This document shows, one piece after another, positions 43,724 through 60,533 of a stretch of DNA of 64,000 nucleotides. The DNA is from an uncultured delta proteobacterium (lineage in GTDB: Bacteria > Myxococcota_A > Polyangia > Polyangiales > Polyangiaceae). Position 1 is the first letter of the stretch. Every line of letters starts with the position of its first letter. Location: NCBI GenBank assembly GCA_963850305.1, contig CAWKKR010000011.1, forward strand, positions 262,641-326,640. Direction: 5' to 3'. A program made the translations under genes and the position numbers. The notes beneath the pieces were generated by a model. It was not told the origin of the DNA, did no database searches, and saw nothing but the letters and a program-made list of their open reading frames with translations.

Positions 43724-44056
43724 ATGGTCTTTCTCGTCGCGTTCCTCGTCGTGATCGCCATCATCGGTGGCCTCGTGTACGTGCTCGTGATTTACCGGGA
43801 AGTACCGGGGGCCGTCGAGCAGCGCTTCGGAGTACTGGAAGCGCTCCCCGAAGACATCGGACAGTGGAAGGTCGACGAAGACACGGAAGAAGGCAAAGCC
43901 GCCGTCTCGCAGGGCCTGAAGCGAGAAACGCGGCTCTTCCACGACGTCCGGGCGAACAAGCTCCTCCGCCAGACCCGGTACCGCAATCGCGCCACGAACG
44001 AAGTTCTGCGCGTGGACCCGGACGAGACCGTAAAGCGCAAGCGGGTTCGCTCCTGA
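43724..44056 (+). CDS. small membrane protein, hypothetical
   Basis: The ATG immediately follows the upstream TAG. The N-terminal TM helix is MVFLVAFLVVIAIIGGLVYVLVIY, followed by a charged tail. Confidence 0.6.
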   Translation: MVFLVAFLVVIAIIGGLVYVLVIYREVPGAVEQRFGVLEALPEDIGQWKVDEDTEEGKAAVSQGLKRETRLFHDVRANKLLRQTRYRNRATNEVLRVDPDETVKRKRVRS

Positions 44057-44072
44057 CACTGCGCCCGCAGGC

Positions 44073-44615: not shown

Positions 44616-46199
44616 GGCTTCATGACCTCGATCCAGTGGATCCTGTACAGGCACTGCCGAGGAGCGGAGCCCCACGTCGCGCGGGCCCCATCGAGCCATG
44701 GAAGCGGCGCCGTCACTCTTTCCGAGACGCGCTCCAGTTCGATACCCGTCGCGCCGAAGATGCCGAGAATCTCTCCGAAGTTGAACGCGTCCGGAAAATC
44801 GGGGTGGTACCCGAGCGGTAGCACGACGTAGTCGGCTCCAATTTTCCTCAGCCACTCCGGCACGCGCGCGGCTTCGAGGTACGGCAGGATCTTCGGTCGA
44901 ACCAGCCCGCCGAGATCCTCGATCTTACGTCCCGAGAAATAACCGACCGCTCCGATGTCGAAGCTGGCGATCACGGCATGTTCAGGCAGCTGCGCGACGT
45001 CGTTCGCGATGCCGATTTCCGTGTTCGTCTCGTGCGCCACGGCGCTCTCGTTGGCCGCCCCGAAGCTCACGAGCGCGTGCGCCATCCCGACGGCGAGAGG
45101 CAGCGCCAGAGCCACGGTGACGAGCCACGTTCGCCGAAAGCCTGGCACGAGGGCACGAGAGACCTCGACGAACCGCGAGAGACCCGCGAGCGCCGCCATA
45201 CAGAGTAAGCCGGGCAGCAGGGGCTGGTAGCGACCCCCATGACCCGTCGAGGGCAGCAGCGCGGCGTACGTCATGTAAGCCACGATGGCCCACGCGAAGA
45301 CGACCGAGATGCGGGTTCTGCGCTCGACGAGGAACGCATAGAGCCCGAAGGCCGCGACGCCGAGCACCGTGTAAAGCGCGAACGGGGAGGTGGTGCCGAG
45401 CGTGTACTCGGCGAGCCGATCGAACCACTGTCCGCTCAAGGACTCGAACCGATCGAGCCCCGTAGAATCCTCGAAGCGCTACCAGGGCGAGCCACCGTCG
45501 CCCGGCGAACGTGCCGGGCAAGAGCTCGCCCGTGCGCAGGAGATTGCGCGAGAAATAGAAGAGGGCAGCAAGCGCTCCCGGCGCGATGAGCCTTGCGTTT
45601 CGGCGCCCGTCTCCGAGCCGGAACGGGACGAGGACCGGCGCGAGAAGAAGCATCTCCGGACGCGTGAGAAAAGCGAGCGCGTACGAGCACCCGGCACCGA
45701 CTTGCGACCGCGGCGAGTCCTCGAAATAGAGCAGGATCGTCACCAATGTGAGGAGCGTGACGAGCATCGTTTCCATCCCCGTCAGCGCGAACCAGACGAA
45801 GTTCGCCGCGCAGCCGAAGGCGATCGCGAGGAATGCGCCTTCCCACGGCCCGAATCGATCCCGACGCGCGAGGCCGTGGACGACCTGGCCCGCACCCAGG
45901 TAACAGGCGAGTGCCAGCAGCGCCGCGAAGAGCGGCGGAGCCACGTGGAGCAGCGCCGGATCGAGGGCGAGAAGGGCCGCCCACAAGACGCTCGTCGCCC
46001 CCGAACCCGGTCGGGAGACGTCGAAGCCGAGCACCCCGTGCGCCGCGAAGTTCCGCGCAACGACCTGATGAATCCAGGCGTCGTCGAGCGGAAAGCCCGT
46101 CGGGAGCTTCCCCCGGCACACGAACCCCATCGCGACGAGTTGACCGGCGAGAACGGCTGACCGCGGCCCGATGCGCTCGGGATGCCATTCGGCGCCCAT
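44612..46199 (-). CDS. GT-C-like polytopic membrane protein, paralogue of 1131..2717, reading frame broken near 45440-45495
   Basis: Frame A (from 46199) reads GFPLDDAWIHQVVARNFAAHG followed by helices, up to LLPGTFAGRRW, and then turns to Arg-rich junk. Frame B opens after an in-frame TAG (45479-45481) and reads RFEDSTGLDRFESLSGQWFDRLAEYTLGTTSPFALYTVLG... to stop 44612. Together they match the architecture of the paralogue. Confidence 0.75.
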
Positions 46200-46230
46200 C
46201 GAACCGCGATGATATAGGCAAGAGAGCGCC

Positions 46231-48345
46231 TTGGTTCAATCTTCCGACAGCCCGCACGCCGGGGCGCCGAACGCCCGGAGCACTTCGATACTCGGCGCGG
46301 CGTTCGGAGGTAGCGTCGCGCTCGCCGCCCTCGCGGTGCTCGAAGCCTTGGTCCGATCGGATTCGCCGGACATCCTTTCTGCGTGTCTGGCCGGCTCCGC
46401 GGGCGCAGCGCTCGGCGCGAGTCTCGCCGCCGGGCGTTCCGCGATGCGATCGCTTTCGCAAGGCAAACAGGCGGCGGCATGGACTCTTGCGGGCGCGGGG
46501 CTCGGTCTGCTGCCGGCCGTGACCGTCGGCGCGATCGCCAAGCTCGCTGGCCCACATCGAGTCATGGCCGGCATGACGCTGGTCGGGAGCTGCGTCGCCG
46601 GTGGCTTGCTCGGCCTGAGCCTCCAGCTGATCACCCGGTCCGGTAATGGTCGCTCGAGAACGACACATCTCGTCACGAACGCGCTCCTCGTTCTCGGAGC
46701 GCTCTTCGTCGCGCTCGCCGCCGAGGTCGCGGACGAGCTCTTGCTGGTCCTCCGGACCTACCCGCCGCTCCGCACCGCGATGACGGTCGGCACGTGGCTG
46801 CTCGTTTCCGCGATCGGCGCCGCCGTTCTCGTCGGCACACGAACACGCTGGACTCGACTCCTCCACTCGGCCTGGTTCGCTGCGCTCGGCATGGGTCTCG
46901 GCCTCACCGTGACCCGCTCCGCGGACCAGGTCGGGAGGTTGCTACTGAGACCCACGAGCGGCCTGGTCGTCGCCATGGGCCGCTCGCTGACCGACTTCGA
47001 CCGCGACGGCTCGTCCTCCCTGCTCGGCGGAGGCGACTGCGCACCGTTCGATCCGAAGGTCAATCCGAGCGCCCGCGAAATCCCCGGGAACGGCATCGAC
47101 GACAATTGCCGCTTCGGAGATCCTCCCGCGCGGCGCGAAGAGCTCGTCAGCACACCGAAGGTCGCGAGTCCCGCCCCGCTCAACGTGCTTCTCGTCACGA
47201 TCGACACTCTCCGCGCCGATCACGTCGGAAGTTACGGATATTCCCGCCCCACGACACCGCACCTCGACGCGTTCGCCGAGCGCGCGCTCCGCTTCACGCA
47301 CGCCTACACGTCAGGCGGATGGACGTGCCTCGCCGTACATTCCCTGATGGCCGGCGCGTATCCGCGGCGATTCGACTGGCAGCCGGCGGCCATCCTGACG
47401 TCCGAGCGCGTCGTCTCGTTCCCGTGGGAAACTCAGCTCCGCCCGGGCGAGTCCTGGATGAACACGCTGTCAGAACCCACCCGTGCACCCGCGAACTCGC
47501 TCCCCTCGTGGCTCGGAGCGCGCGGAATGCGCGTGGTGGCGGCCGTGGCATCGACGCCCGCGGCGGTCTTTCGATACGAGGGATGGTTCGAGCGGAACTT
47601 CGAACGCTCGATCGTCACCCAGCCGGATTCGAACGACGAGGCAGTGGCTGACGCAGCCATCGAGCTACTTCGAGCCCCCGACAATCGCCCCTTCTTTCTC
47701 TGGGCTCACTTCTTCGAACCCCACGAGCCGTATGAACACCATCCGGGTCTCCCGATCTTCGGCGACGAGCTCGTGGACCGGTACGATCACGACGTGGCGT
47801 TCGCCGACGAACAGGTCGGACGCTTGCTCGACGCCGTTGCGGCCCGCACCGGGCGCGAGACGGCCATCATCGTCGCCGCGGACCACGGGGAGACCTTCGT
47901 CGGCGGATTTCCGGTGCATGGCGCGGACCTCCAGGAAGACTCGATTCGCATCCCCCTCCTTCTGCGCGGCCCCGGCATCGAACCCGGCGTGACCGCCGCT
48001 CCGGCAAGCCTGGTGGACATTGCTCCCACCATCTACGACTGGACCGCCACGCCGCGACCTCCGGATCTGGATGGCGTCAGCTTGCTGCACGCACCGTCGC
48101 ACCGCATCGTGCTCACAGACATCTGGCGGCACGACCGCGACGGTAAAGTCTATCTGGACCTCGTGGGCGCGACCGGAGCCACACGGCGACTCGTGCGCGA
48201 CCAGAAACGCGAAGCCTGGTACTCCTACCGGGTCGGTGACTACACGAGACCCCCCGTGCCCCTCCACGAGCCTCCCGACCCGGCCTTGTCGAACGCCATC
48301 GGCCGCTATCTGGAAGAAACCGGCGTCATCGTGAGCGCGCCGTGA
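46231..48345 (+). CDS. membrane-anchored sulfatase-like (alkaline-phosphatase superfamily) hydrolase/transferase
   Basis: About 8 N-terminal helices are followed by a DFDRDG...GGDCAPFD...GNGIDDNC metal-binding-type motif. The catalytic domain contains LLVTIDTLRADHVGSYGY, FFLWAHFFEPHEPY and AADHGE. The TTG start is uncertain. Confidence 0.8.
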   Translation: MVQSSDSPHAGAPNARSTSILGAAFGGSVALAALAVLEALVRSDSPDILSACLAGSAGAALGASLAAGRSAMRSLSQGKQAAAWTLAGAGLGLLPAVTVGAIAKLAGPHRVMAGMTLVGSCVAGGLLGLSLQLITRSGNGRSRTTHLVTNALLVLGALFVALAAEVADELLLVLRTYPPLRTAMTVGTWLLVSAIGAAVLVGTRTRWTRLLHSAWFAALGMGLGLTVTRSADQVGRLLLRPTSGLVVAMGRSLTDFDRDGSSSLLGGGDCAPFDPKVNPSAREIPGNGIDDNCRFGDPPARREELVSTPKVASPAPLNVLLVTIDTLRADHVGSYGYSRPTTPHLDAFAERALRFTHAYTSGGWTCLAVHSLMAGAYPRRFDWQPAAILTSERVVSFPWETQLRPGESWMNTLSEPTRAPANSLPSWLGARGMRVVAAVASTPAAVFRYEGWFERNFERSIVTQPDSNDEAVADAAIELLRAPDNRPFFLWAHFFEPHEPYEHHPGLPIFGDELVDRYDHDVAFADEQVGRLLDAVAARTGRETAIIVAADHGETFVGGFPVHGADLQEDSIRIPLLLRGPGIEPGVTAAPASLVDIAPTIYDWTATPRPPDLDGVSLLHAPSHRIVLTDIWRHDRDGKVYLDLVGATGATRRLVRDQKREAWYSYRVGDYTRPPVPLHEPPDPALSNAIGRYLEETGVIVSAP

Positions 48346-48665
48346 AAGCTGTCTGCTGCACGTTGTTGCACGAGCGTGACGGAATGCTCCAGCATCACCG
48401 TCAGACTCGCTTCGTCGAGCATTCGAGCCGCCCTTGGCGAGACATGCCGGGCTGAGGCGATTTGTCAGAGCTTGGGCGTCGCATCAATGCGAACCAGTCG
48501 ATGGCGCGACCGCCTTCGAGACACGCGACGCGGGGTCGTGCATCCCTGATTATCCCGTCGCACTCAAGGTCTGCTCCGTTTCATATCAGGAGCCGTGCGC
48601 GGTCGACACGGGCTGCGGTCCCGCGGGCTTCACGTGCAATCACGACGCGGGAGAGCTTTGCTCGG

Positions 48666-48821
48666 GTGGAAACTGCACTCCGGTCTCGCGATATTCGCGC
48701 CCTGTTCGGCCTCAGCAAGAAAGCCTTCAAACGCGCCGCGGGGCGCTTGCTGAAGGGGCGCGCGGTTACCATCGACGCCCAGGGTTGGGTGCGGCCGGGG
48801 AAGGGCGACCGAGAGAGCTAG
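48666..48821 (+). pseudogene. isolated C-terminal winged-helix module of a CvfB/YitL-type S1 RNA-binding protein (remnant or stand-alone mini-ORF)
   Basis: RDIRALFGLSKKAFKRAAGRLLKGRAVTIDAQGWVRP matches the conserved CvfB C-terminus (...FG.SKKAFKRA.G.LYK...I...). GC3 is high only over these ~45 codons. I could not read S1 domains upstream in any frame. Confidence 0.35.
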
Positions 48822-48870
48822 GGGTACGCGCGAGACATGTCGGAGCGGCCGCCCAATGGTAGGGCGTGCC

Positions 48871-49716
48871 TCACGCGGTCCACTCTTCGCTTCGCCGCCA
48901 CAGTTCCGACGCGAGCGCCACGTCTTGCGCCGCCTTGCTGGGTTCCACGGCCTGACACTTGTCGTAATAGAGACCGCTCTCCTTCTCGCACGTCGGCGAG
49001 GTGGCGCAATAGAGCGTCGTCCTGGCGCCGTCCTCCGTCGTGAGCATGAAAGACTTGATGAGCGGACGCAATGGCCAGGGGACTTGTCGCCAGACATCCG
49101 AGGCGACGACGCCGGGATGAAGCGAATAGGTCGTCACTCCCGTGCCCGCAAGGCGACGCCCGAGCTCTGCGTTGAAGAGCACGTTCGCGAGCTTGGACAC
49201 GTTGTATTCAGGCACCGCGGTGCGCGTGACGGTCGGCCTTCGAACGGCATCGAAGTCGACGCTTTTCGCGCGGTAGTGACCCTTGCTGGCGACGGTGACG
49301 ATCCGTCCGGGGGCCGACTGCTCGATGCGCGGAAGGAGCAGGGAGGTGAAGGAGAAGTGACCTACGTGGTTGACGCCGAATGCGAGCTCGAAGCCCGACC
49401 TGGTGAGCCCACGTGCGCCTGCGAGACCCGCGTTGTTGATCAGAAGGTGAAGCGGTAATCCTTTGGCGAGAAATTCCTTCGCGCACGCTCGCACCGAGGC
49501 CAGATCTCCGAGATCGAGCGACAACGTCTCCACGTCGCGTCCGGTTTCGCTCCGGATCTGCTCGACGGCGGGCCTGGCGCGCTCTTCGGAGCGACAGGCG
49601 ATGAACACGCGCGCCCCTCCCCTCGCGAGCTCTTTCGCCGTGACGAGACCGATGCCGGTATTCGCGCCCGTGATGATGGCGACTCGGTCGGACAGAGAGT
49701 GACTCGTATCGTTCAT
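48871..49716 (-). CDS. short-chain dehydrogenase/reductase (retinol-dehydrogenase/WWOX-like SDR)
   Basis: Trimmed to ATG 49716. The sequence contains VAIITGANTGIGLVTAKELA, LINNAG and YNVSKLANVLF (YxxxK). Confidence 0.85.
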   Translation of the reverse strand: MNDTSHSLSDRVAIITGANTGIGLVTAKELARGGARVFIACRSEERARPAVEQIRSETGRDVETLSLDLGDLASVRACAKEFLAKGLPLHLLINNAGLAGARGLTRSGFELAFGVNHVGHFSFTSLLLPRIEQSAPGRIVTVASKGHYRAKSVDFDAVRRPTVTRTAVPEYNVSKLANVLFNAELGRRLAGTGVTTYSLHPGVVASDVWRQVPWPLRPLIKSFMLTTEDGARTTLYCATSPTCEKESGLYYDKCQAVEPSKAAQDVALASELWRRSEEWTA

Positions 49717-49778
49717 GGGAAGCGGGAGCATAATTTCGAAAGTGCCTCTGGCGCCAGCATCAGTCCGACGCCCGTGGC

Positions 49779-50648
49779 TCAGGTCTTTCTCGCCATGATC
49801 ATCCACGTGCTCGACGGGAGGTAGACACCTCCCTCACGCAGATGCCCCTCGAGCATCGAGGTGAGCTTCGCCCGGATCTCGGGGAGCTTCCGCCGTCCCT
49901 CCTCGCCGGCTTCGCGCACGATCTCCCCCGAGGGTCCGACGAGGATCTGGTAGTCGATCGCTTCTTCCACCGTTCGGCCGATGCACATGTCGAGGTCGAG
50001 GCGCTCGAACAGGTCCACCTGACTGAAGCCGGCGGCGGCGAGCATTTCACGATCGGTCTCCTCGTCCGCCCACGAGAACGGGCCGGGCCCGCACGTCTGC
50101 GCGTTGTCGCCGGGCGGCGGAAGGAATTCGCGCACGACGGTCTTCGCGGCGCCCCACGCCGGGTTGTCCAGGAGGCCGCGCCATACGATGAGGCAGACCT
50201 TTCCGCCCGGAACCAGCGCTCGATGGACGTTTCGCAGCGCTCTCACGGCGCTCTGGAAGAACATCACGCCAAACCGCGCGAATGCGACGTCGTAGTAGCT
50301 CGGTTCGAGCGGATGCACCTGGGCGTCCCCGATCTCGTACCGGACGTGCGCAGGGCCCGCCACGTCGCGTTCGCGATTAGCGATCTCGAGAAAGGCACTC
50401 GTGCAATCGAGCCCGAGCACCTCTCCCGATGAACCTACCAGGCGATCGAGCTCGAGGCTCGTCTCCCCGAAGCCGCATCCGAAGTCGAGCACGCGATTTC
50501 CCGGCTGAACGCCGAAGCGCGGAATCGCGACGTCGCTGTGAAGCTTTCCGTTGCCGGAGAGCAGATGCCGGAAGCGGATCCATTTCGGAGTGAGGACCTC
50601 GTTCCAGCATCCGATGAAGTCTTCATTGTCCGCGGCGACGTTCGTCAT
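49779..50648 (-). CDS. class I SAM-dependent methyltransferase
   Basis: Motif I is VLDFGCGFGETS. The sequence also contains DVAFARFGVMFF and LVPGGKVCLIVW. Confidence 0.8.
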   Translation of the reverse strand: MTNVAADNEDFIGCWNEVLTPKWIRFRHLLSGNGKLHSDVAIPRFGVQPGNRVLDFGCGFGETSLELDRLVGSSGEVLGLDCTSAFLEIANRERDVAGPAHVRYEIGDAQVHPLEPSYYDVAFARFGVMFFQSAVRALRNVHRALVPGGKVCLIVWRGLLDNPAWGAAKTVVREFLPPPGDNAQTCGPGPFSWADEETDREMLAAAGFSQVDLFERLDLDMCIGRTVEEAIDYQILVGPSGEIVREAGEEGRRKLPEIRAKLTSMLEGHLREGGVYLPSSTWMIMARKT

Positions 50649-50942
50649 CGAAATGGGCTCCGGGGAGGGACGTGTCTCGGCGTGTCACGTGACTCGCAGA
50701 AAGTTTGCCTCGAAAGCGTTCATCGTGGGGCCGTAGTACTCTCTGAACGCTGCCGCCAGCTCGAGGGAGCGGGCCGCGATGGTTGAACGTGCATGTGTCC
50801 CGGATCAACGCGACGTTCTTCTTCTCGACCCTCGACGTCACCGACCTTTGGTCGAGCGTTCGGGCGCTGCGTCCCCAGCGCGTCCGGCGCCCGCGCACCG
50901 GCCGGGATGCACGAGCAGACCCGAGACGCCTCGGATGGCGGC

Positions 50943-52433
50943 TCACCGTGAGGCTCGCCGACGTCGTCGAACGAGCGCAAGCCCGGCGATCCCCATCCCG
51001 AATGCGAAACGGGACCTGGGATTCGCTTCCGTCTGCGCGGCCGTGCGGCAACTACAACCGCCGTTCGAAGTCGCGCTCGGGGTATGCGCGCCCGCGTCCG
51101 CCGTGCCAGCCGCACCTGTGCCGGTCCCACCGCCGGAGCCAGTTGTGCCGCCCGAGCCGGTCGCGCCGCCCACTTCACCCGCGCCGCCTGAGCCAGTTGC
51201 GCCGCCAGAGCCGAGCGCGCCGCCTGAGGCACTCGCATCGCTCACTGACGTCGTGCCGCCTGAGCCGGTCGCGCCGCCTGAGGTACTCGCATCGCTCACT
51301 GACGTCGTGCCGCCAGAGCCGGTCGCGCCGCCAGGGGCACTCGCATCGCTCATTGACGTCGCGCCGCCAGAGCCGGTCGTGCCGCCCGCGGTACTCGCAT
51401 CGCTCACTGACGTCGTCCCTCCGGATGACGTGGTTCCTCCGCTTGCGGCTGCATCCGGCGCGGCAGCGTCCGGCGGCGCAATAAAACAGACGCCGGCCCA
51501 ACACTTCCCAGCTCCGCACGAGGATCCGTCCGAGGCGAAGGGATCCTGGCAGGTGCCTGTGATCACGTCGCAGGTCCCGGCTGCCCGGCAAGGTCCGGAA
51601 GGCGCGCAAAGCGTGGGAGTTGCCAGGACGGGCGCCCCTGCGAGCTCGCAGTCGGAGAGCGCGCGATAGTAGAGACGGATCTCATCGACGTCCCCGACGA
51701 AGTAATTGTTGTAGGTGCTCGAGATGGGATTGCTGCCGAAGCTGACCCGCTCCGTGGAGGTGAGGTCGGTCACCGCGGTCGTCGTCTGGGTGTCGCTGCT
51801 GATTCCGTCGATCCAGAGGGTAACGCTCGTGCCTTGCCGCCGACCGGCGATGTAGTGCCACTGGCCGTCATCGATGGCGGTGCTCAGATGGGCACCGGCG
51901 CCATTCGTCCCTGCGACGTCCTGGTACATCTCGAAGCTCACGCCGCCGCCGCTGGTCGTCCGGAAGCCCCAGAAATTGCATGCCGACCCACAGTTTCGAT
52001 TCCCGAGGAGCTCGCTGTTCGCGGCAACCGATGTGCGGATCCAGAAGGTCGCGGTGAAATCGCTGGTGCCGACGAGGTCCGGCACCCCGAGGTCCACGAT
52101 CGAGCCTGCGCCTCCCCCCGGAAGCGTCACGGCGCCGTTCGCGACGCCGCTCGAGATCCGGGTAGTCGTGGCGCCCAGTGTTCCGTCGTCACCGCCGGTC
52201 AGCCCGGTGTCCGTCGCGGTCGTATTTCCGGCCTCGTTCGGCTCGTCGAACCTCCACCAGTGCGCGGGCCCCGAGCCAATGGCCGCCACGACGGTTCCCG
52301 TCGCCGGCGTCGACGAACGGTCCGTGGAGCATCCGAGCGGCGCGCCCCCGACGAAGCCGACGAGTGAGAGCGCCGAGACGGCGCGAGCCGCGGAACGATA
52401 CTGACTCTTCATGGTGCCCACGCCGCGACGCAC
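50943..52433 (-). CDS. lipoprotein with LamG/concanavalin-like domain, Gly/Ser/Thr tandem repeats and MYXO-CTERM-type tail
   Basis: Start is GTG 52433 or ATG 52412 (MKSQYRSAARAVSALSLVGFVGGAPLGC). The LamG-like part contains FTATFWIRT, DGQWHYIAGRR, LWIDG and FVGDVDEIRLY. The 18-aa repeat GGTTSVSDAS.SGGATGS follows. The tail is NGGCSCRTA...GIAGLALVRRRRR. Confidence 0.85.
   Translation of the reverse strand: MRRGVGTMKSQYRSAARAVSALSLVGFVGGAPLGCSTDRSSTPATGTVVAAIGSGPAHWWRFDEPNEAGNTTATDTGLTGGDDGTLGATTTRISSGVANGAVTLPGGGAGSIVDLGVPDLVGTSDFTATFWIRTSVAANSELLGNRNCGSACNFWGFRTTSGGGVSFEMYQDVAGTNGAGAHLSTAIDDGQWHYIAGRRQGTSVTLWIDGISSDTQTTTAVTDLTSTERVSFGSNPISSTYNNYFVGDVDEIRLYYRALSDCELAGAPVLATPTLCAPSGPCRAAGTCDVITGTCQDPFASDGSSCGAGKCWAGVCFIAPPDAAAPDAAASGGTTSSGGTTSVSDASTAGGTTGSGGATSMSDASAPGGATGSGGTTSVSDASTSGGATGSGGTTSVSDASASGGALGSGGATGSGGAGEVGGATGSGGTTGSGGGTGTGAAGTADAGAHTPSATSNGGCSCRTAAQTEANPRSRFAFGMGIAGLALVRRRRRASR
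51235..51450. repeat. 54-bp in-frame tandem repeat (about 4 units) inside the LamG/MYXO-CTERM gene
   Basis: Units start at 51235, 51289, 51343 and 51397 (GCATCGCTCACTGACGTCGTGCCGCC...). Degenerate copies extend from about 51110. Confidence 0.9.
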
Positions 52434-52546
52434 CCTCGGTCGCGCCCTTCTCTGAGTTAAAAGCGAAGCCGGAACCGTACATCATCTCGCTAAGCGGGCG
52501 CCCCAATTTTCTTGCGGGAAGGAGAGCAGGGGCCACACACTTCCGC

Positions 52547-52971
52547 TTACATCAATGCGGCGCAGCTCGCCGCTTCGAGACCTGCCGTGTCGTCTTTCCC
52601 GTACGCATACCGCGGCGTGGTGAACGGCGGACCGCCGCCGCCCTGCGCATGCTGCCCTGCGGTGGACAGCGCTGAATTGTCTGGACTCGCCGTGCCGCGC
52701 GCACACGGGCAGGGCGCGCATCGAACGAGCGCGCTTCCCCACTGCCCCGCGTTCGGAGTGAGAGTTGCGCCGCCACCGAAGGCGATGGGGCACCGATGTT
52801 CCCGGTTCCGTTGTAGAGCCCGGTCAGAACGATCTGGTCCTGTGCGTCGAGCACGAACGTCACCGGGTCGTCGTCGCCGGTACCGCCGTAGCCGCGCGCC
52901 CAGTCCACGGTACCGTCGCGCAGGACCCGCGACAGCATCACGTCGGACGCCTCCTCCGGGTCGTGCGTCTT
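52547..52971 (-). pseudogene. 5'-truncated, frame-shifted fragment of a beta-propeller (SBBP-type) repeat protein
   Basis: The fragment opens just after an in-frame TAG (52972-52974). It reads DVMLSRVLRDGTVDWARGYGGTGDDDPVTFVLDAQDQIVLTGLYNGTGNIG. The +1 frame then continues PIAFGGGATLTPNAG... to TAA 52547-52549. There is no signal peptide or N-terminal part. Confidence 0.4.
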
Positions 52972-53012
52972 CTAACCGCGACCGGCGGGAATTCGCGAGG
53001 CCACGCCCGCGT

Positions 53013-53420
53013 TCAGCGCCGCGCTTGGATCATCTTCCACCCGTTGCCCGACGGATCCCGGAATCCGGCGTCCACGGTACCGAAGCGCTCCATGGGCTCC
53101 TGCGTGAACTCCACCCCCCGCGCGCGCATTCGCTCGTACGCGGCGCGGCAGTCATCCACCGTCAGGACGAGCGGCGGCATCGCGCCCTTTGCGACGATCT
53201 CGCGCAGCGACTGCGCCGTCCCGGCGTCGTGTACGGGCGGCCCCGGCAGGAACAGGCCGAGCTCGAAGGACGGCTGGTCCGGGTGCTGGACCGTCAGCCA
53301 GCGATAATCCCCGTTACGCACGTCCGCATGGACGCGGAATCCGAGCTTCTCGACGTAGAACTCGAGCGCTTCATCCTGGTTGCGAACGTACAGACCGACC
53401 ATCCCGATGCCTTGGTTCAT
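53013..53420 (-). CDS. VOC-family (glyoxalase/bleomycin-resistance fold) protein
   Basis: The sequence is MNQGIGMVGLYVRNQDEALEFYVEKLGF...FRDPSGNGWKMIQ. A GGAG lies 5 nt before the ATG. Confidence 0.85.
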   Translation of the reverse strand: MNQGIGMVGLYVRNQDEALEFYVEKLGFRVHADVRNGDYRWLTVQHPDQPSFELGLFLPGPPVHDAGTAQSLREIVAKGAMPPLVLTVDDCRAAYERMRARGVEFTQEPMERFGTVDAGFRDPSGNGWKMIQARR

Positions 53421-53907
53421 GTGATCTCCGTTTCTTCAGCTCCTTAGTACCGCCCGCGCCGTGGCGTCGCTTCTCCGAAACTGCGATCGTGAGATCGGGC
53501 CGGTGCGCGGCGCTGAGAAAACAGACGGGCACGCGTTCGGGTTCGCGCGTCGCGGCCCGTTCCCGCCTGCGGAACTGACCGGGGCTCTCGCCTGTCACGT
53601 CGCGGAAGGTCCGGCCGAAGGTGCCCAGGCTGCTCCAGCCCGTCTGAAACGCGATCTCTGTGACGGGCAGGTCGGTGTCGCGGAGCAGCGCGGTGGCTCG
53701 CTCGATTCGCCGCGTGAGCAGGTATCGATGGGGTGGGACGCCGAAGGCCTCCTTGAAGGACCGCGCGAAGTGGGCTTCGGACACGCCGCTCACGCGCGCC
53801 AGCCGGCGCACGGGCCACTCCTCGTGCGAGGCCGCGTCCATCCGGTCCTTCGCGCGCAGCAAGCGCCGGAGTAGCTCGGGATCCTGGCTCAAGCGATGAG
53901 CCTCCAC
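53371..53907 (-). CDS. AraC-family transcriptional regulator (HTH only); 3' end probably mis-framed
   Basis: The HTH is LARVSGVSEAHFARSFKEAFGVPPHRYLLTRRIERATALLRDTDLPVTEIAFQTGWSSLGTFGRTF. After ...IAVSEK GC3 collapses and the ORF overlaps the VOC gene by 50 nt. The +1 frame reads SFGEATPRRGRY and stops at 53444-53446. Confidence 0.75.
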   Translation of the reverse strand: MEAHRLSQDPELLRRLLRAKDRMDAASHEEWPVRRLARVSGVSEAHFARSFKEAFGVPPHRYLLTRRIERATALLRDTDLPVTEIAFQTGWSSLGTFGRTFRDVTGESPGQFRRRERAATREPERVPVCFLSAAHRPDLTIAVSEKRRHGAGGTKELKKRRSHEPRHRDGRSVRSQPG

Positions 53908-54013
53908 AGAGGATGTGTGCGTTGCCAGACCAAGAACGTATCCTCGTGGAGGGCGCGGCTCACTGTGTTCGACCGCGTACCATGGTTCGGCCGAGCCGAG
54001 CTGCCGCGCGATC

Positions 54014-55020
54014 TCATTGCCGGGCGCGATACGTCGAAGGCGCCGCGCCTTCCCAGCGCTTGAAGGCGCGCCGGAAGTTCGCGAGGTCCGTGTAGCCGAG
54101 GCGATAGGCGATCTCGTCCATGCCGAAGTGGCCCGACTTCAGGTGTTCGACGGCGAGCGTGTGTCGCACGGACTCGAGGATCTCCTCGATAGGACGTCCC
54201 CTCCTCCACGAGGCGCCGATGCAGCGTGCGTGTGGTCATGCGGAAGAGGCGCGCGGTCACCTGGAGCGACGGGAAGCCGCTCTGCTTCTCGAGCAGCAGG
54301 CGCCGCACGCGCGCGCTCGTCGAGGCGTGCGCCGCGATCTGCTCGAGCTCGCGCTGACAGATCAGCGCCGCGTCCTGGAACGCGGCCGGGTCCGCAAGCT
54401 TGAGCGGTAGATTCGAGCGCGCTCGCCGGTGCCGAGAAGCCGGTCCATTGCTGGTCGTACCGCACGGGGCACCCGAAGATCTCGCGCGCGAGCGTCGCGT
54501 GCTCGGGCTTGGGGAAAACGAAGCTCACCTCGCTGACGTGACACGCGCCGAGCGTGACCTCGTCGAGGACGTTCTTGATGCCGAGCACGATCGCTTCGAG
54601 GAGTGGACGCTGGATGTCCCCGAGCGGCAGCATCTCCGTGAACCGCACCCGCGCCTCCCGCGGGTCGACCTCGTGGGAGATCGTGACGAGCGAAGTGCGC
54701 AGCCGCGCGAAGCGCTCGACGATGTCGAGGGCCTGCCGCACCGTGCTGCTGTTCACGGCCGCCGCGCCGACCATGCCGTGAGTGCTGGCGAGGAGCCGCT
54801 CACCGACGAACAGTCCGAGCGCGGGCTCGCGCGCGATGGCCAGCGCCTCGAGCACGAGCTGCCGCAGCTGCGGGTACGGAAACATGCGGTGCGGATTCGC
54901 GAACTCGGCCTCTTCCATCCCGCAGCGACGGAGCCAGTCGTCGACGCTCGCGCCGCTGGTGCGCAGCTGATCGCCGATGAGCCGCACGTACTCGGCGGGC
55001 GTGCTGAAGTCGTCCGGCAT
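54014..55020 (-). CDS. AraC-family regulator (AraC-binding-like N-domain plus HTH), reading frame broken twice (near 54405-54415 and 54186-54193)
   Basis: Frame 1 runs from MPDDFSTPAEYVRLIGDQL to YDQQWTGFSAPASALE. Frame 2 continues PLKLADPAAFQDAALICQRELEQ...VRRLLLEKQSGFPSLQVTARLFRMTTRTLHRRLVEEGTSY. Frame 3 continues EEILESVRHTLAVEHLKSGHFGMDEIAYRLGYTDLANFRRAFKRWEGAAPSTYRARQ to stop 54014. Confidence 0.8.
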
Positions 55021-55160
55021 CTCGCCGATCGATTGGCAACAAATGACCCTTCATTGTCAAGAAATGACCTCCCTTGCTCGCCGACCGATCCGTAGAATCA
55101 GGGTGTAGCCGCGCGTGGATCCGATGTGATCCGCAGCAATCACCGGTAGATGAGGCGTCC

Positions 55161-57428
55161 ATGGAAGGCCCGATTTCCCCCGAAAGGCTCACGACCGTCC
55201 GGATCAACGGCCAGGCCGTCCCCGTCGAGCCGAAGGAGACCGTGCTCCAGGCGGCGCTGCGCGCCGGGGTCGACTTCCCGAACAGCTGCCGCGTGGGCGG
55301 CTGCGGCACGTGCCGATGCAAGCTCGCGTCGGGTCGAGTGAAGGAGCTCACCGAGACTGGTTACCTCCTGACGGCGGAGGAGATTGACCAAGGCTACATC
55401 CTCGCGTGCCAGAGCGTGCCGCAAACGGACGTGAGCGTGGAGGTGGATCTCTCGCGTGCGTCGGCCCGAGGCGTGCCCGGTCGCATCGTCGGGCAGGCCA
55501 AGGTCACGCACGACATCACGCGGCTCACCGTGCAGCTCGATCAGCCCGTCCCCTACAAGGCGGGCCAGTTCGCGAACCTCGCCATCGACGGCTTGCCCGG
55601 CGTGATACGAAGCTACTCCTTCGCGAGCCCGTCGCACCGCGACGCCCGGGTCACGTTCTACGTTCGCAAGGTGCCCGGCGGTGAAGTCTCGTCCCTCCTC
55701 AACGACACCGAGGTCGTCGGGCGCGGCGTGCGCGTCGACGGCCCCGTCGGAGACTTCTTCCTGCGAGCGAGCGATGCTCCGCTCCTCTTCGTGGCGGGTG
55801 GAAGCGGGCTCGCTCCGATCCTCGCGATCTTGAAGGACGCCGTCGCCGCGGGCGTGACGCGATCCGCGACGCTGCTCTTCGGCGCCCGAACCCAGGCCGA
55901 CCTGTACGCGCTCGAAGAGATCGAGGCGATCGCCGCGCAATGGCGGGGCTCGTTCCGCTTCGTGCCGGTGCTGTCCGCCGCACACGACGACGGGGCGTGG
56001 GCGGGCGAGCGCGGGCTCGTGACGGAGAAGATCCCGGAGCTCCTCGAGCGGGGCTCGCACGGATACCTGTGCGGCCCTCCCGCGATGATCGACGGCGCGA
56101 TCGAGCTCCTCCGACGCCAGGGCGTGTCGCGCGAGCACATCCACTTCGACCGCTTCACGACTCGCGCGGACGCCGAGAGCGCGAAGGTGGTCGCCCCCGC
56201 CGCCGAGCTCACCCAGGAGCGGTCGACGGCTGGCGTCCTGCACTACCTGAAGTATTTCGCCTTCCACCTCATCGGCCTGCTCGCCGTGAGCGCCATCTTC
56301 GGCGGCGGCAACATCGCGACGAGCGGGCTGCTCACCGTGCTCGCCCTGTACGTGCTCGGCGACGCCCTCCTCGGCGACGACACGTCGACGCCGCACTTCA
56401 CGTACCCGAAGATTCTGACGGCGCAGCTCTGGCTCGCCTTGCCGTTGCTCTCCCTGATCGTATTCGCAGCCGTGTGGAGCGTGTCACCGGGAGACCCTCT
56501 CGGCGCGGGCGCGCTCATCCACCGGTACCTGGGCTATGACGCGCTCGCCGCCCGCGCGGCTACGGGCGCGGGCGGCTACGTCTCGATTTTCGCGCTCACC
56601 GGCCTGATGATCGGGATGATCGGCACCATCACCGCGCACGAGCTCACCCACCGGACGTGGGATCCGGTTTCCATGCTGATCGGACGCTGGCTGCTCGCCT
56701 TCAGCTTCGACACCACCTTCGCCATCGAGCACGTCTACGGGCACCACCGGTACGTCTCGACCGTGGAAGACCCCGCGACGGCTCCGCGCGGACGCAACGT
56801 CTACCATCACATCGTCGCTTCGACGATCAAGGGCAATGTCAGCGCGTGGAAGATCGAGACGGACCGGCTCCGCAAGAAGCACCTCGGCGTGTTCAGCTGG
56901 CACAACGCGATGATTCGCGGCGAGCTGATGAGCGCAGCGTTGGTCGCGCTGTCCTTCGCGCTCGGCGGCGTCCGGGGCTGCGCGTTCTTTATCGTGTGCG
57001 CGCTCTGGGGAAAATCCCTTCTCGAGATCGTGAACTACATGGAGCACTACGGCATGGTGCGGAACCCGGCGACGCCCGTGCAGCCGCGCCACTCGTGGAA
57101 CACCAACCGTCGCGTGAGCTCCTGGACGATGTTCAATCTCACCCGGCACTCGCATCACCATGCCCAGGGCGAGGTCCCCTACCAGGACCTGAAGCCCTAT
57201 GCCGACGCCCCGATGATGGTGAGCGGCTACCTGACGACGATCATGATCGCGATGCTGCCCCCGCTCTGGCACAGGCTCATGACGCCGAAGGTGCTCGTGT
57301 GGGACCGCGACTACGCGACTGCCGAAGAGCTCGAGCTCGCCGCTCGCGCCAACCAGAAGAGTGGCATGCGCGCCTTCACCGCCGGCGCGCCACCAGCCTA
57401 CGGCTCGACTCAGGCGACTCGCGCGTGA
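55161..57428 (+). CDS. self-sufficient membrane monooxygenase: [2Fe-2S] ferredoxin plus FNR-type reductase (XylA-like) fused to AlkB/XylM-family di-iron hydroxylase
   Basis: ATG 55161. The ferredoxin domain has CRVGGCGTC...ACQS. The FNR domain has RSYSFAS, GGSGLAP and YLCGPPAM. The membrane domain carries all AlkB-type His boxes: HELTHR, EHVYGHH, NYMEHYG and LTRHSHHH. Confidence 0.85.
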   Translation: MEGPISPERLTTVRINGQAVPVEPKETVLQAALRAGVDFPNSCRVGGCGTCRCKLASGRVKELTETGYLLTAEEIDQGYILACQSVPQTDVSVEVDLSRASARGVPGRIVGQAKVTHDITRLTVQLDQPVPYKAGQFANLAIDGLPGVIRSYSFASPSHRDARVTFYVRKVPGGEVSSLLNDTEVVGRGVRVDGPVGDFFLRASDAPLLFVAGGSGLAPILAILKDAVAAGVTRSATLLFGARTQADLYALEEIEAIAAQWRGSFRFVPVLSAAHDDGAWAGERGLVTEKIPELLERGSHGYLCGPPAMIDGAIELLRRQGVSREHIHFDRFTTRADAESAKVVAPAAELTQERSTAGVLHYLKYFAFHLIGLLAVSAIFGGGNIATSGLLTVLALYVLGDALLGDDTSTPHFTYPKILTAQLWLALPLLSLIVFAAVWSVSPGDPLGAGALIHRYLGYDALAARAATGAGGYVSIFALTGLMIGMIGTITAHELTHRTWDPVSMLIGRWLLAFSFDTTFAIEHVYGHHRYVSTVEDPATAPRGRNVYHHIVASTIKGNVSAWKIETDRLRKKHLGVFSWHNAMIRGELMSAALVALSFALGGVRGCAFFIVCALWGKSLLEIVNYMEHYGMVRNPATPVQPRHSWNTNRRVSSWTMFNLTRHSHHHAQGEVPYQDLKPYADAPMMVSGYLTTIMIAMLPPLWHRLMTPKVLVWDRDYATAEELELAARANQKSGMRAFTAGAPPAYGSTQATRA

Positions 57429-57501
57429 GCAGTCAGCGTCCGTCGCGGACCACCTCGAGTGGTCCCGTCGTTCGCGAAGAGTTCCCTCCCCGCGTTGCGG
57501 C

Positions 57502-57543
57502 AAGGCCGTTCCACGTCACGGAAAGGCCGTTCCACGTCACGGC
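57502..57543. repeat. 21-bp direct tandem duplication in a convergent intergenic region
   Basis: AAGGCCGTTCCACGTCACGG(A/C) occurs twice back to back. The flanking GGCAAGGC is repeated at 57499 and 57544, giving a partial third unit. Confidence 0.85.
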
Positions 57544-57563
57544 GGCAAGGCATCCGAGTCTCG

Positions 57564-60533
57564 TCAATCCTCCGGCGCGAACCCGCGGCGGAGGGTGTTC
57601 TCGGTGACGGTCCGGGCAGTGGCGAAGTGCAGCAGGTAGTCGCGGCCGCCCGCCTTGCCGCCGGTGCCGGAGTGCCGGTGGCCGCCGAAGGGCTGACGTG
57701 AGACGAGCGCGCCGGTGATCTTGCGGTTCACGTAGAGGTTGCCGACGTCGAAGTCGGCGCGAGCACGGGCGATGTGGGCGGGGCTCCGCGAATAGACGCC
57801 ACCCGTGAGCGCGTATTCGGTCCCGTTCGCGAGCGCGAGCGCGTGCGCGAAGTCCCTCGCACGCAGCACGGCGAGGACCGGGCCGAAGATCTCTTCCTGG
57901 GCGAGCTTCGACGTCGGATCGACGTCGGCGACGATCACGGGCGCGGCGAAGTATCCCCGCTTCGTGCCGGGACCGAGCTCGCCGCGATAGACCACCCGCG
58001 CGGCGCGGCTCGCCGCCTCGACGTAGCGCGCGACGCGTCCCACGGACTCGGCGTCGATGAGAGGGCCCACGGAGCTCGCGGGGTCGTCGGCAGGACCCGT
58101 GACGAGAGCGCGAGCGGCTTCGACGAGCCTTTCGACGAACGCATCGTGGGCTCGCCCGACGACGATGACGCGGCTGCACGCCGAGCACTTCTGACCCGCG
58201 TACCCGAACGCGGACGCGAGCACGCCGGGGACGGCTTCGTCGAAGTCGGCGTCGTCATCGACGATGATCGCGTTCTTGCCGCCCATCTCGGCGATGACTT
58301 TCTTGATGCCGAAGGGTCCGATCGACGTTTCCGCCGCCCTCCGGGCGATCAGGTGTCCAGCGGCACGCGAGCCGGTGAACGCAATGGTCGCGATATCGGG
58401 GTGCTCGACGAGCCGCGCGCCCGCGACCTCGCCGAGGCCGGGCAAGAAGTGGAGGGCTCGCGCCGGCACGCCCGCCTGGCGGAACAGGCGGAAGACGTGG
58501 AAGGCACACGCGGGGGTTTGCTCGGCGGGTTTCAGGAGTACCGGATTGCCCATCACGAGGGCCGCGCTCGCCATGCCCGTCAAGATCGCGAAGGGGAAAT
58601 TCCAGGGACTGATGACCGCTGTGGGGCCGCGGGGTCCGAGCGTGGTCACGTTGTCCTCGCCCGGGACCGCGCACCGCTCGGGCTTCGAGAGAGCGCGCGC
58701 CTCGACGGCGTAGTAACGACAGAAGTCGATCGCCTCGGCGATGTCCGCGTCGGCGTCGCGGATCGGCTTCCCGGCTTCGAGACATGCCCAGGCCGCAAGT
58801 TCGTCGCGCCGCGCCGCCATCGAGGCGGCGACGCGCTCCAGGATCGCCGCTCGCTCGTACGCGGGAACCGCGCGCCACTCGGCTAAGCCCTCCTTCGCGG
58901 ATTCCACCGCTCGATCGACATGGCCGGCCTCGGCGGATGCACTCGACGCGACGACGCGCGTGGCGTCCGACGGGCACACGCTCCGGATCAGCTCGGCGGT
59001 ATCGACGTCCCCGCCCGCGATGACGAGCGAGCAGTGAATCCCGGCATCCCGCGACACGCTCGCGAACGCGCTGCGAAAGGCGGTCCGCGCTTCCTCGTTC
59101 GAGAAGTCGCGAAGGGGCTCGTTCTGGAATGCGTCGCCCGGGTCAAGGTTCATCGGGGTTTCCTCTCGGGGTGGGGACGGAAGCGGTGGCGCGACGAGCC
59201 AGTCGATATCTTGGCCGCTGCCCAGCTCGTGCCGCACGAAGGATTCGTTGGAGGTGTTTTCGAGAAGGCGTCTCACCAGATAGGCCATGCCGGGAATGAG
59301 CTCGCCGAAGGGCATGTAGACCCGCACGCGCTGGCCCATCTTCGTGAGTCCGACTTTGAGGGCTTCGGCCATGCCGTAGAGGGCCTGGAGCTCGATGTAG
59401 CGCTCCGGAAGGCCCCGCACCCGCGCCACCGAGAGCGCTCGCGAAAGGCTTCGTACGTTGTGGCTCCCGAACGCCGGCCGGAGGGTGCTCTCGCGATCGA
59501 GCAAGAGCTCGGTGCACCGCTCGTAGTTCGCGTCGGTCTCCCATTTCCGCTCCCAGACCGGCACCGGCCAGCCGCGTTGTCGGGCGAGCACCGTCTCGGA
59601 ATCCCAGTACGCGCCCTTGACGAGTCGCACCCAGAAGGGAGCGCCGCGCCGGCGCGCGAACGCCGAGAGCCGTCCGAGGTCACGCTCCGCGTCGCGCAGA
59701 TAGGCCTGGAGAACGACGCCGACGTGCGCATTCCTGGCGTAGCGAGGGCTCCCGAGCACTTCTTCGAAGATTGAAAGCGTGAGGTCCTTGCGTTCGTATT
59801 GCTCCATGTCGACGTGGACGAACGCGCCGACTTCCGCGGCGACGTCGAGGATGGAGCGGAGCCGGGGGACGACGGCGCGTGCCACTCCGTCGGGGTCGAG
59901 GGGATCGAAGATGGACGTCAATGCGGACAGCTTGATGGAAATGTTTACCCGCGGGAGACGCGAGCCGTCGTGGTCGCGATCGATGCGCGGGTCCTCCGGG
60001 AGGGACGCCACGGCGCTCGCCGTCTCGCGGAGCAGCGCGACGTATTGATCGCGATAAGCGTCCGCTTCGCGTTCGGTGAGCACGGCTTCACCGAGCGCAT
60101 CGAGGGTGGCCGCGAGGCCGCGCGACCGGAGCTCGCGGATCGCGACGACGAGCTCGCGCGGCGTGGTGCCGGCGATGAACCTCTTCGCCATCCGGAGAAC
60201 GTTGCGACGCGCCGTCCTCGAGACGACTCGCGCGACGCGCCGCTCCGACCGCGAGAGGTCGACCGTCCACCGGAGCGGCACGGGGAGGTCGTCCCGCGCG
60301 TCCCCGAGGTATTCGACGAGGTGCGCCGTGACGTCATCGGGCGGCAGCGCCGGGAGGACGTCGATGAACCGGAAGAGCTCCGCTTTCAGGTGCGGATGGC
60401 GCATACAGAAGTCGAGGACGAGGTCATCCCAGAATGCCGTATCCGGCAGCCACGGCACGTCGCTCGAGGATTGCTCGAGGAGCGCTCGCGCCGTACGCTC
60501 GGTGGCTTCCTCGATGTCGTCGGACTCGGGCAC
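57564..60533 (-). CDS. putA: bifunctional proline dehydrogenase / L-glutamate gamma-semialdehyde dehydrogenase PutA (no DNA-binding domain)
   Basis: 989 aa with a GTG start. The PRODH barrel contains ISIKLSAL, VHVDMEQY, VGVVLQAYL, VRLVKGAYWD and LYGM. The ALDH part contains SPWNFP, EMGGKNA, GQKCSA and EEIFGPV. Confidence 0.9.
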   Translation of the reverse strand: MPESDDIEEATERTARALLEQSSSDVPWLPDTAFWDDLVLDFCMRHPHLKAELFRFIDVLPALPPDDVTAHLVEYLGDARDDLPVPLRWTVDLSRSERRVARVVSRTARRNVLRMAKRFIAGTTPRELVVAIRELRSRGLAATLDALGEAVLTEREADAYRDQYVALLRETASAVASLPEDPRIDRDHDGSRLPRVNISIKLSALTSIFDPLDPDGVARAVVPRLRSILDVAAEVGAFVHVDMEQYERKDLTLSIFEEVLGSPRYARNAHVGVVLQAYLRDAERDLGRLSAFARRRGAPFWVRLVKGAYWDSETVLARQRGWPVPVWERKWETDANYERCTELLLDRESTLRPAFGSHNVRSLSRALSVARVRGLPERYIELQALYGMAEALKVGLTKMGQRVRVYMPFGELIPGMAYLVRRLLENTSNESFVRHELGSGQDIDWLVAPPLPSPPREETPMNLDPGDAFQNEPLRDFSNEEARTAFRSAFASVSRDAGIHCSLVIAGGDVDTAELIRSVCPSDATRVVASSASAEAGHVDRAVESAKEGLAEWRAVPAYERAAILERVAASMAARRDELAAWACLEAGKPIRDADADIAEAIDFCRYYAVEARALSKPERCAVPGEDNVTTLGPRGPTAVISPWNFPFAILTGMASAALVMGNPVLLKPAEQTPACAFHVFRLFRQAGVPARALHFLPGLGEVAGARLVEHPDIATIAFTGSRAAGHLIARRAAETSIGPFGIKKVIAEMGGKNAIIVDDDADFDEAVPGVLASAFGYAGQKCSACSRVIVVGRAHDAFVERLVEAARALVTGPADDPASSVGPLIDAESVGRVARYVEAASRAARVVYRGELGPGTKRGYFAAPVIVADVDPTSKLAQEEIFGPVLAVLRARDFAHALALANGTEYALTGGVYSRSPAHIARARADFDVGNLYVNRKITGALVSRQPFGGHRHSGTGGKAGGRDYLLHFATARTVTENTLRRGFAPED

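Follow-up and report, generated by a model that had tools for sequence, protein, structure and literature searches.

The fused gene at 55161..57428 on the forward strand of the window (the whole 64,000-nucleotide stretch analysed here) combines ferredoxin, flavin reductase and AlkB-type membrane hydroxylase parts in a single open frame of 755 amino acids plus stop, and this fusion is real and intact. Judged from its sequence, the protein belongs to the published ferr_ferrR_AlkB family, and by analogy with other members the gene probably encodes a self-sufficient membrane alkane omega-hydroxylase. The gene itself is new as a member of this family, which is already known and widespread. It is part of a conserved unit that also includes a divergent AraC-family regulator gene and a tandem 15-bp repeat.

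The frame starts with the ATG at 55161 and runs without interruption to the stop codon at 57426-57428. The longest ORF begins at a TTG codon at 55074, and the N-termini of the homologues align from the ATG at 55161. More than 120 full-length homologues (66-90% identity) are collinear with the protein, sharing the same four domains, domain order and length, and the single-polypeptide ferredoxin/FNR/AlkB fusion proposed in the sequence-only reading is therefore borne out. The hydroxylase part is preceded by an Ala/Ser/Thr-rich interdomain linker (56157..56234, forward strand; approximately residues 333-358), in which residues 333-354 have pLDDT values <50 in the predicted structure. The linker is variable: the closest relatives differ in its sequence and length yet preserve the frame, and in an alignment with the five closest of them it stays collinear and in frame. 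At 56180-56230, where the same reading had allowed for a missed stop or a frame error, this alignment contains neither a stop nor a local drop in similarity, and the objection does not hold.

The electron-transfer module consists of a plant-type [2Fe-2S] ferredoxin domain (residues 15-88; 55203..55424, forward strand; Fer2, PF00111, E 1.8e-17) and FNR-like FAD-/NAD-binding domains (55482..56096, forward strand), namely FAD_binding_6 (PF00970, residues 108-199) and NAD_binding_1 (PF00175, residues 210-312). The [2Fe-2S] cysteines are arranged as C43-x4-C48-x2-C51 plus C83, and all four are invariant in an alignment of 20 family members. The reductase motifs RSYS (150-153), GGSGLAP (213-219) and CGPP (304-307) were located as well, so that each of the motifs named beforehand is present. 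The module is of the XylA/BenC/GcoB type, in agreement with its earlier description as XylA-type: it shares 41% identity with pWW0 XylA, and the solved structures that match it best by sequence and fold are GcoB (5ogx), T4moF (4wqm) and BenC (1krh). The suggested architecture of PF00111, PF00970, PF00175 and PF00487 was recovered in full by Pfam, with all four domains exceeding the curated cut-offs.

The C-terminal part is an AlkB-type integral-membrane di-iron hydroxylase domain (56235..57425, forward strand; FA_desaturase, PF00487, residues 478-681) with six hydrophobic (transmembrane) helices between residues 360 and 625. All four histidine motifs expected of the AlkB family were found, i.e. 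HELTH at 493, EHVYGHH at 523, NYMEHYG at 625 and RHSHHH at 662, and all align with those of the AlkB structures 8f6t (E 8e-40) and 8sbb (E 4e-35), the only two solved structures to which the hydroxylase is related by sequence. Foldseek superimposed the domain on 8f6t over 378 columns with a TM score of 0.66, and an NCBIfam search returned no model matching the hydroxylase part.

The position of the hydroxylase was assessed in two quick trees built from different taxon samples, with SH-aLRT support only. A fused clade with 97-98% support unites the protein with that encoded on pPNAP01 of Polaromonas naphthalenivorans CJ2, and this clade is nested in a larger group that includes XylM. The XylMs of pWW0 and pNL1 form their own long branch (100% support), and the AlkBs of Pseudomonas, Marinobacter, Methylibium, Rhodococcus and Ralstonia are split from the hydroxylase by branches with 95-96% support. 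The anticipated placement against AlkB and XylM was obtained in the sense that the hydroxylase groups with AlkB/XylM, in a fused clade on the XylM side, and the transfer of a substrate from classical AlkB is therefore indirect. A grouping with fatty-acid desaturases or beta-carotene ketolases, which had been named as grounds for refutation, does not occur: a 98% branch divides the AlkB/XylM group from the genome's desaturase/ketolase-type paralogues, six of which lie outside. The NYxEHYG motif is absent from the genome's PF00487 paralogues (C4_444k frame; histidine-motif lists of six frames), and with NYMEHYG present and the paralogues beyond the 98% branch, an identity as desaturase or carotenoid ketolase was rejected. 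Membership of the classical AlkB system was likewise rejected, since the protein has no rubredoxin domain and lies outside the rubredoxin-type AlkB clade; the genome has one rubredoxin domain, on another contig. In the trees, the fused clade is surrounded by many uncharacterised hydroxylases of ~390 amino acids, and several hydroxylases near it have ferredoxin-FNR partners, either adjacent or fused, including fusions in reverse order.

The ferr_ferrR_AlkB architecture has been on record since 2014 (Nie et al. 2014, PMC4021335), and all of its features are present here: an N-terminal ferredoxin with four cysteines, FNR-like domains and a C-terminal six-transmembrane AlkB. A search of species-representative genomes located relatives of the gene at 586 places, and these span hundreds of species genomes of Myxococcota, Beta- and Gammaproteobacteria and Leptospira. 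They include Limnobacter, Leptospira and Polaromonas, the genera of the family's first description (PMC4021335), and the protein is 54-57% identical to those of the Limnobacter and Leptospira loci. As in the family at large, Fer2, FNR and AlkB follow one another in one polypeptide of ~750 amino acids with the same motifs, and a divergent AraC regulator is common to both; unlike in the family as described, this member comes from a Polyangiaceae-type myxobacterial MAG, and no alkJ, alkK or alkH follows. The sequence-only reading regarded this architecture as noted in genome surveys only and biochemically little explored. This claim is outdated: according to the summaries in PMC8918992 and PMC12903215, members were expressed in 2021-22, NADH alone suffices for activity, C10-C12 alkanes are preferred (Williams et al. 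2022, J Inorg Biochem 228:111707), and alkenes are not epoxidised. In addition, an oxidoreductase-fused AlkB of 754 aa is encoded on an ICE of Pseudomonas putida EM2-4; the protein has been expressed, and mutants have been built in this strain, for which growth on C8 and C10 is documented (PMC12903215). Compared by description, the EM2-4 protein resembles the one reported here in layout, with residues 1-333 forming an N-terminal oxidoreductase part and residues 334-754 an AlkB part, but its gene lies on the ICE in an alk cluster beside an alcohol dehydrogenase gene, whereas the gene in the window stands alone with its regulator.

Two better known systems share parts of this design. In the XylM/XylA xylene monooxygenase of pWW0, an AlkB-family membrane hydroxylase is also fed by a Fer2-FNR reductase, but the two are encoded by separate genes, hydroxylase then reductase. 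XylM is only ~34% identical to the hydroxylase over 60% of the domain, and no xylB or xylC neighbours were found in the window; with the XylMs on a separate long branch and with gene order and neighbours different, membership of this system was rejected. Classical AlkBs (Pseudomonas OCT-type; the Fontimonas AlkB-AlkG fusion, 8f6t) share the fold, the nine-histidine di-iron site and the four motifs. However, they align to the hydroxylase core only (domain residues 125-367, ~35-39% identity) and receive electrons from rubredoxin and rubredoxin reductase, whereas the protein described here has a fused ferredoxin-FNR module.

The divergent AraC-family regulator (Arabinose_bd plus HTH_18; 54014..55020, reverse strand) is readable only through three frames. 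In tblastn searches with three orthologues the frame switches twice, and alignment with the DNA of a same-genus orthologue reveals two 1-nt insertions, near 54411 and 54186, neither of which is within a long homopolymer. All segments of the regulator are well conserved (66-84% amino-acid identity). The genome's only copy of ffh, an essential gene in the 15300-17100 region of the window, is likewise split over three frames, from which we conclude that the assembly carries systematic single-base insertion errors; because ffh is broken in the same way, the breaks in the regulator are likely to be assembly error. Of the 67 loci with enough upstream flank, 51 have a divergent orthologue that is intact, and so do 19 of 20 Myxococcota loci. 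Between the divergent start codons lies a tandem 15-bp direct repeat, TGGCAACAAATGACC / TGTCAAGAAATGACC, whose copies are 21 bp apart (55034..55069, forward strand). When up to two mismatches are allowed, the 15-mer has two matches in the window, both within 55034-55069, against an expectation of 0.01. The core columns of the repeat are invariant from Myxococcota to Betaproteobacteria, and the exact composite pattern was found once in 30 loci, ~90-170 bp upstream of the gene start where a start is listed. The repeat is probably an AraC operator. A scan of 54950-57650, including the intergenic region, yielded no sigma-70 promoter-like site and a single terminator-like match, inside the gene at 56965, which is no more than expected by chance.

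The flanking genes named in the sequence-only reading, i.e. the divergent AraC gene, a second, HTH_18-only AraC gene (53371-53907, reverse strand) and a VOC/glyoxalase gene (53013-53420, reverse strand), were all found, with the qualification that the first must be read through three frames here. In none of 80 other loci is the fused gene accompanied by the second AraC gene or by the VOC gene; these two, and also putA, are unrelated neighbours. The fused gene is present in 4 of 41 relatives and in 2 of the 7 genomes of the genus, and the same-genus genome carries it in a different genomic context. For a test of synteny, putA was located in five same-genus genomes and the 8 kb past its 3' end were compared in four of them; these segments show no similarity to positions 44000-57600 of the window, and insertion boundaries are therefore not definable. 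The regulator-repeat-hydroxylase unit is compact and patchily distributed and probably moves horizontally. In the window, as in most Myxococcota loci, the fused gene is adjoined neither by alkJ, alkH and alkK nor by genes for an alcohol dehydrogenase, an aldehyde dehydrogenase or an acyl-CoA ligase. On pPNAP01 of Polaromonas, the operon of the fused gene contains genes for a GMC alcohol dehydrogenase, an acyl-CoA ligase, an aldehyde dehydrogenase and OmpW, and alk-type clusters led by a fused gene are also present in Noviherbaspirillum, Limnobacter, Caldimonas, Hydrogenophaga and Duganella. The protein in the window shares 64-72% identity with proteins encoded at the head of complete alk-type operons.

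In the mechanism that we propose, NADH would reduce the FAD of the FNR-like module, from which single electrons would pass via the N-terminal [2Fe-2S] ferredoxin domain to the di-iron centre, presumably held by the nine histidines of the six-helix C-terminal AlkB domain. This centre would activate O2 and hydroxylate the terminal methyl group of a medium-chain n-alkane, a substrate suggested indirectly, by analogy with characterised fused enzymes known by description. The flexible linker would tether the reductase to the cytoplasmic N-terminus of the hydroxylase, and with the two so linked a separate rubredoxin and rubredoxin reductase would be unnecessary. Expression is most likely controlled by the divergent AraC-family regulator, which would bind the tandem 15-bp repeat in the 140-bp intergenic region.

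The state of the assembly bears on two other explanations. It is quite improbable that the gene was acquired horizontally and is now a silent or decaying passenger, its dedicated AraC activator being a genuine pseudogene that carries two frameshifts and leaves the hydroxylase uninduced. The insertions relative to the same-genus orthologue, placed outside long homopolymers, would fit such decay, as would the patchy presence and the context unlike that of the same-genus genome; however, the similarly broken single-copy ffh points to insertion errors of the assembly, every segment of the regulator is still conserved, and the hydroxylase ORF is intact, with no local degeneration relative to relatives of 88-90% identity. 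Far less probable still is that the single ORF is itself an assembly artefact in which an indel error joined adjacent reductase and hydroxylase genes. Indel errors do occur, and genuine split forms of the fused clade exist, e.g. reductase then hydroxylase on a Hydrocarboniclastica plasmid. Against this, the same fused order and length recur in the independent full-length homologues from many assemblies, the two closest relatives (88-90% identity) run through the linker without gap or shift, and elsewhere the fused form has been Sanger-verified and expressed as an 83-kDa protein (PMC12903215).

An enzyme of the same architecture could also have a physiological substrate other than n-alkanes in this myxobacterium, such as a terpenoid, an alkyl-aromatic as for XylM, or a fatty acid or other lipid, and would then function in detoxification, in signalling or in the modification of lipids and not in growth on alkanes. 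In the trees, XylM and the many uncharacterised hydroxylases of ~390 amino acids, and not classical AlkBs, group with the clade, alkJ, alkH and alkK are not adjacent in the window or most Myxococcota loci, and the genome already has a separate AlkB-like gene, 37% identical and conserved in the genus. Nevertheless, we consider such a substrate unlikely, given the similarity to the heads of complete alk-type operons, the activity of characterised family members on medium-chain alkanes as summarised in PMC8918992 and PMC12903215, and the low identity and separate branch of XylM. A related thought concerns the role and not the chemistry: since genes for downstream alcohol and aldehyde oxidation are lacking, a role other than alkane catabolism might apply, and there is a small chance that the minimal two-gene unit of Myxococcota (AraC with repeat operator, and enzyme) serves, e.g., to hydroxylate, upon induction, a hydrophobic compound from the environment or from prey, for detoxification or signalling.

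These findings leave the understanding of how self-sufficient fused AlkBs work unchanged, and a family with very few assayed members gains a high-GC myxobacterial sequence. NADH-only single-polypeptide AlkBs are of interest for biocatalysis, since they spare the co-expression of a rubredoxin or a reductase. A hydrocarbon biosensor could be built on the conserved AraC-plus-tandem-repeat control unit, and this unit and the neighbouring hydroxylase diversity may prove more useful than the gene itself. If the non-catabolic role considered for the Myxococcota unit were true, it would represent a new physiological role for an otherwise known enzyme family.

The fused gene (55161-57428, plus strand) lies in an open frame that runs uninterrupted from 55074 to 57428, and translation from the ATG at 55161, the point at which the alignment with the closest homologues also begins, gives 755 stop-free residues. 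The product contains four Pfam domains, each scoring well over its curated cut-off: Fer2 (residues 15-88), FAD_binding_6 (108-199), NAD_binding_1 (210-312), and FA_desaturase (478-681). The [2Fe-2S] cysteines (C43-x4-C48-x2-C51 and C83), the FAD/NAD motifs (RSYS 150, GGSGLAP 213, and CGPP 304), and the AlkB histidine motifs (HELTH 493, EHVYGHH 523, NYMEHYG 625, and RHSHHH 662) were all located, and a hydropathy scan and an AlphaFold2 model indicate six long helices within residues 360-625. The sequence-only reading, which had described a single ORF joining ferredoxin, reductase, and hydroxylase modules and had named these motifs, is confirmed in its observation and right in its structural interpretation.

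In a sequence search of solved structures, residues 1-345 resemble three-domain ferredoxin-FNR reductases, the best matches being GcoB (5ogx, E 7e-55), T4moF, and BenC, and the fold search agrees. This half shares 41% identity with pWW0 XylA and is matched by the NCBIfam models for BenC, MmoC, and AntC, although under their equivalog cut-offs. Residues 345-755 match just two solved sequences, 8f6t (E 8e-40) and 8sbb (E 4e-35), each an alkane 1-monooxygenase, with the four histidine motifs in register in both; the Foldseek alignment to 8f6t spans 378 columns with a TM score of 0.66. No NCBIfam model covers the hydroxylase half.

The divergent AraC-family gene directly upstream (54014-55020, minus strand) can be read in whole only by using three frames, and alignment to the same-genus orthologue reveals one extra nucleotide at each of two places, near 54411 and 54186. 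The ffh gene (15392-17034, plus strand) is likewise split over three frames: its SRP54 GTPase profile is matched at positions 4-120 in one frame and 121-196 in a second, and the M domain (SRP_SPB) lies in the third. Since ffh is an essential gene and this is the sole copy found in the genome, the frame breaks in both genes are best read as assembly errors; the split ffh points to systematic single-base insertion errors, and the organism itself probably carries an intact AraC regulator.

Because the assembly contains such indel errors, the fusion itself was checked. Its origin in a frame error, an alternative that the sequence-only reading had raised, is contradicted by the homologues: in a search of 5.8 billion proteins, the best 120 matches listed are all of similar length (713-785 aa), share 66-90% identity over 94-99% of the query, and carry the same four Pfam domains. 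The five closest are collinear with the fused protein across the linker (residues about 338-358) with zero shift, and 15-column windows of this alignment contain no low-similarity stretch. The linker is rich in Ala, Ser, and Thr and variable in length, and its modelled pLDDT falls below 50 over residues 333-354, as would be expected of a flexible tether. In another organism, a fused protein of the same type was confirmed by Sanger sequencing and, when expressed, gave an 83-kDa polypeptide (PMC12903215).

The hydroxylase domain was placed by two quick IQ-TREE runs that differed in their sampling, in which support is SH-aLRT alone and the outgroup branches are long. The input comprised the domain, its fused relatives, the closest 50%-identity representatives, and labelled references from annotated plasmids (XylM of pWW0 and pNL1; AlkBs adjoining rubredoxin genes in Pseudomonas, Marinobacter, and Rhodococcus; and those of Methylibium and Ralstonia), with six desaturase/ketolase-type PF00487 paralogues of the same genome as outgroup. 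Both runs were concordant. The domain and the plasmid protein of Polaromonas naphthalenivorans CJ2 fall in one fused clade (97-98% support), whose sister is a standalone 394-aa protein (98-100%); these, together with XylM and many uncharacterised hydroxylases of ~390 aa, form a larger group (95-96%) outside which the rubredoxin-type AlkBs fall. A 98% branch parts the AlkB/XylM assemblage from the desaturase-type paralogues, and the domain therefore does not group with desaturases or ketolases, the other alternative raised earlier. By tree placement, it is neither a classical AlkB nor a XylM but a member of a separate, fused clade.

The same genome encodes a second, distant AlkB-like gene (contig C8:479996-480709, minus strand; locus L021; 407-aa open frame) that is 37% identical to the hydroxylase domain, has homologues in most same-genus genomes, and joins the classical AlkB group at its base on a long branch. 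The genome's sole rubredoxin domain is encoded on a different contig (C4:60638-60769), within an 897-aa open frame. Distant AlkB-like genes annotated 'fatty acid desaturase' were also seen on plasmids of Massilia putida (L013:383-2301) and Paraburkholderia fungorum (L014:465-2142), directly 3' of genes for autoinducer-binding (LuxR-type) proteins, which hints at a link to quorum-sensing signals.

A split form occurs on plasmid psoil36-7 of Hydrocarboniclastica marina (L007:4888-7176), where separate genes encode a 343-aa reductase (53% identical) and, after a gap of 75 nt, a 393-aa hydroxylase (71% identical), beside the same divergent AraC gene as in the fused units. An IS1380 transposase adjoins this pair. 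The end of a reductase gene also lies just upstream of the gene for the standalone 394-aa sister; therefore, the fusion joins two adjacent genes, reductase then hydroxylase. The psoil36-7 form is nested among fused members in the tree and may represent a secondary fission. Two other relatives, P0129 (786 aa) and P0137 (742 aa), have the reverse order, an N-terminal AlkB-like hydroxylase followed by Fer2, FAD_binding_6, and NAD_binding_1, and in both trees belong to the same hydroxylase radiation but to other sub-clades, a placement suggesting that hydroxylases became fused to ferredoxin-FNR reductases on more than one independent occasion. A limited look at the literature found no mention of this reverse order.

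The 140-bp intergenic region between regulator and enzyme contains a tandem direct repeat, TGGCAACAAATGACC / TGTCAAGAAATGACC (55034-55069), with starts 21 bp apart; the 64-kb window holds no match besides these two, where 0.01 would be expected. The repeat core is invariant from Myxococcota through Noviherbaspirillum, and the composite pattern is present in exactly one copy in each of 30 loci, ~90-170 bp upstream of the gene start where a start is listed. As AraC-family activators usually have a direct repeat at 21-bp spacing beside the promoter that they regulate, we read this repeat as a candidate operator to which the regulator would bind.

Relatives of the fused protein are encoded by 586 stretches in species-representative genomes. 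The best 80 of these include Myxococcota (Polyangiaceae, Sandaracinus, and Kofleriaceae), Aquabacterium, Hydrogenophaga, Rhodoferax, Limnobacter, Leptospira, Pseudomonas citronellolis, Marinobacter, Oleispira, Thalassolituus, and Alcanivoracaceae. The AraC protein of relatives is 340-356 aa long with Arabinose_bd and HTH_18 domains, and its gene is an intact divergent neighbour in 51 of the 67 loci with enough flank (19 of 20 in Myxococcota). Of the flanking genes named in the sequence-only reading, the divergent regulator is conserved; the VOC gene and the second, HTH-only AraC gene, like putA (57564-60533, convergent, the next gene after the fused gene) and the other neighbours, never recur among the best 80 of 586 loci. 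Genes of alk type follow the fused gene in a minority of loci. The IncP conjugative plasmid pPNAP01 of Pol. naphthalenivorans CJ2 carries a complete operon of alk type with the fused enzyme at its head (L006:3697-13090), in the order AraC (divergent), fused AlkB, GMC alcohol dehydrogenase, acyl-CoA ligase, aldehyde dehydrogenase, and OmpW; its record annotates the fused gene merely as 'fatty acid desaturase'. Such genes also follow in Noviherbaspirillum, Limnobacter, Caldimonas, Hydrogenophaga, and Duganella.

Only 4 of 41 related genomes, the present one included, carry the fused gene, the other three being of the same genus (88% identity), family (72%), and order (74%). In the same-genus pair (the present genome and the one with loci L001/L028), the fused proteins are 88% identical, versus ~73-77% for PutA, and the flanks of the regulator-enzyme unit differ wholly, which fits a recent horizontal exchange of this unit. 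Given this identity contrast, the unrelated contexts, and the occurrence on conjugative plasmids and an ICE, the data fit horizontal movement of the regulator-operator-enzyme unit.

The architecture, which the sequence-only reading had considered little explored, is not new. Ferredoxin-FNR-AlkB genes were described in Leptospira, Limnobacter, and Polaromonas by Nie et al. 2014 (PMC4021335), and a 2022 review refers to the family as ferr_ferrR_AlkB and reports that its genera have been catalogued and that the protein has been expressed and is active, does not epoxidise alkenes, and is mislabelled in databases as fatty acid desaturase (PMC8918992). Exactly this mislabelling appears in the source names of the best 120 matches. 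As summarised in PMC12903215, Williams et al. 2022 found NADH-only activity and a preference for C10-C12; a Pseudomonas putida ICE encodes a 754-aa fused enzyme, and the strain grows on C8 and C10 (PMC12903215). The present locus has no linked downstream genes for an alkane pathway. Its gene adds an uncharacterised member to a family that has already been described and validated biochemically, and the enzyme probably uses NADH to hydroxylate medium-chain alkanes at the terminal position, with AraC controlling its expression.
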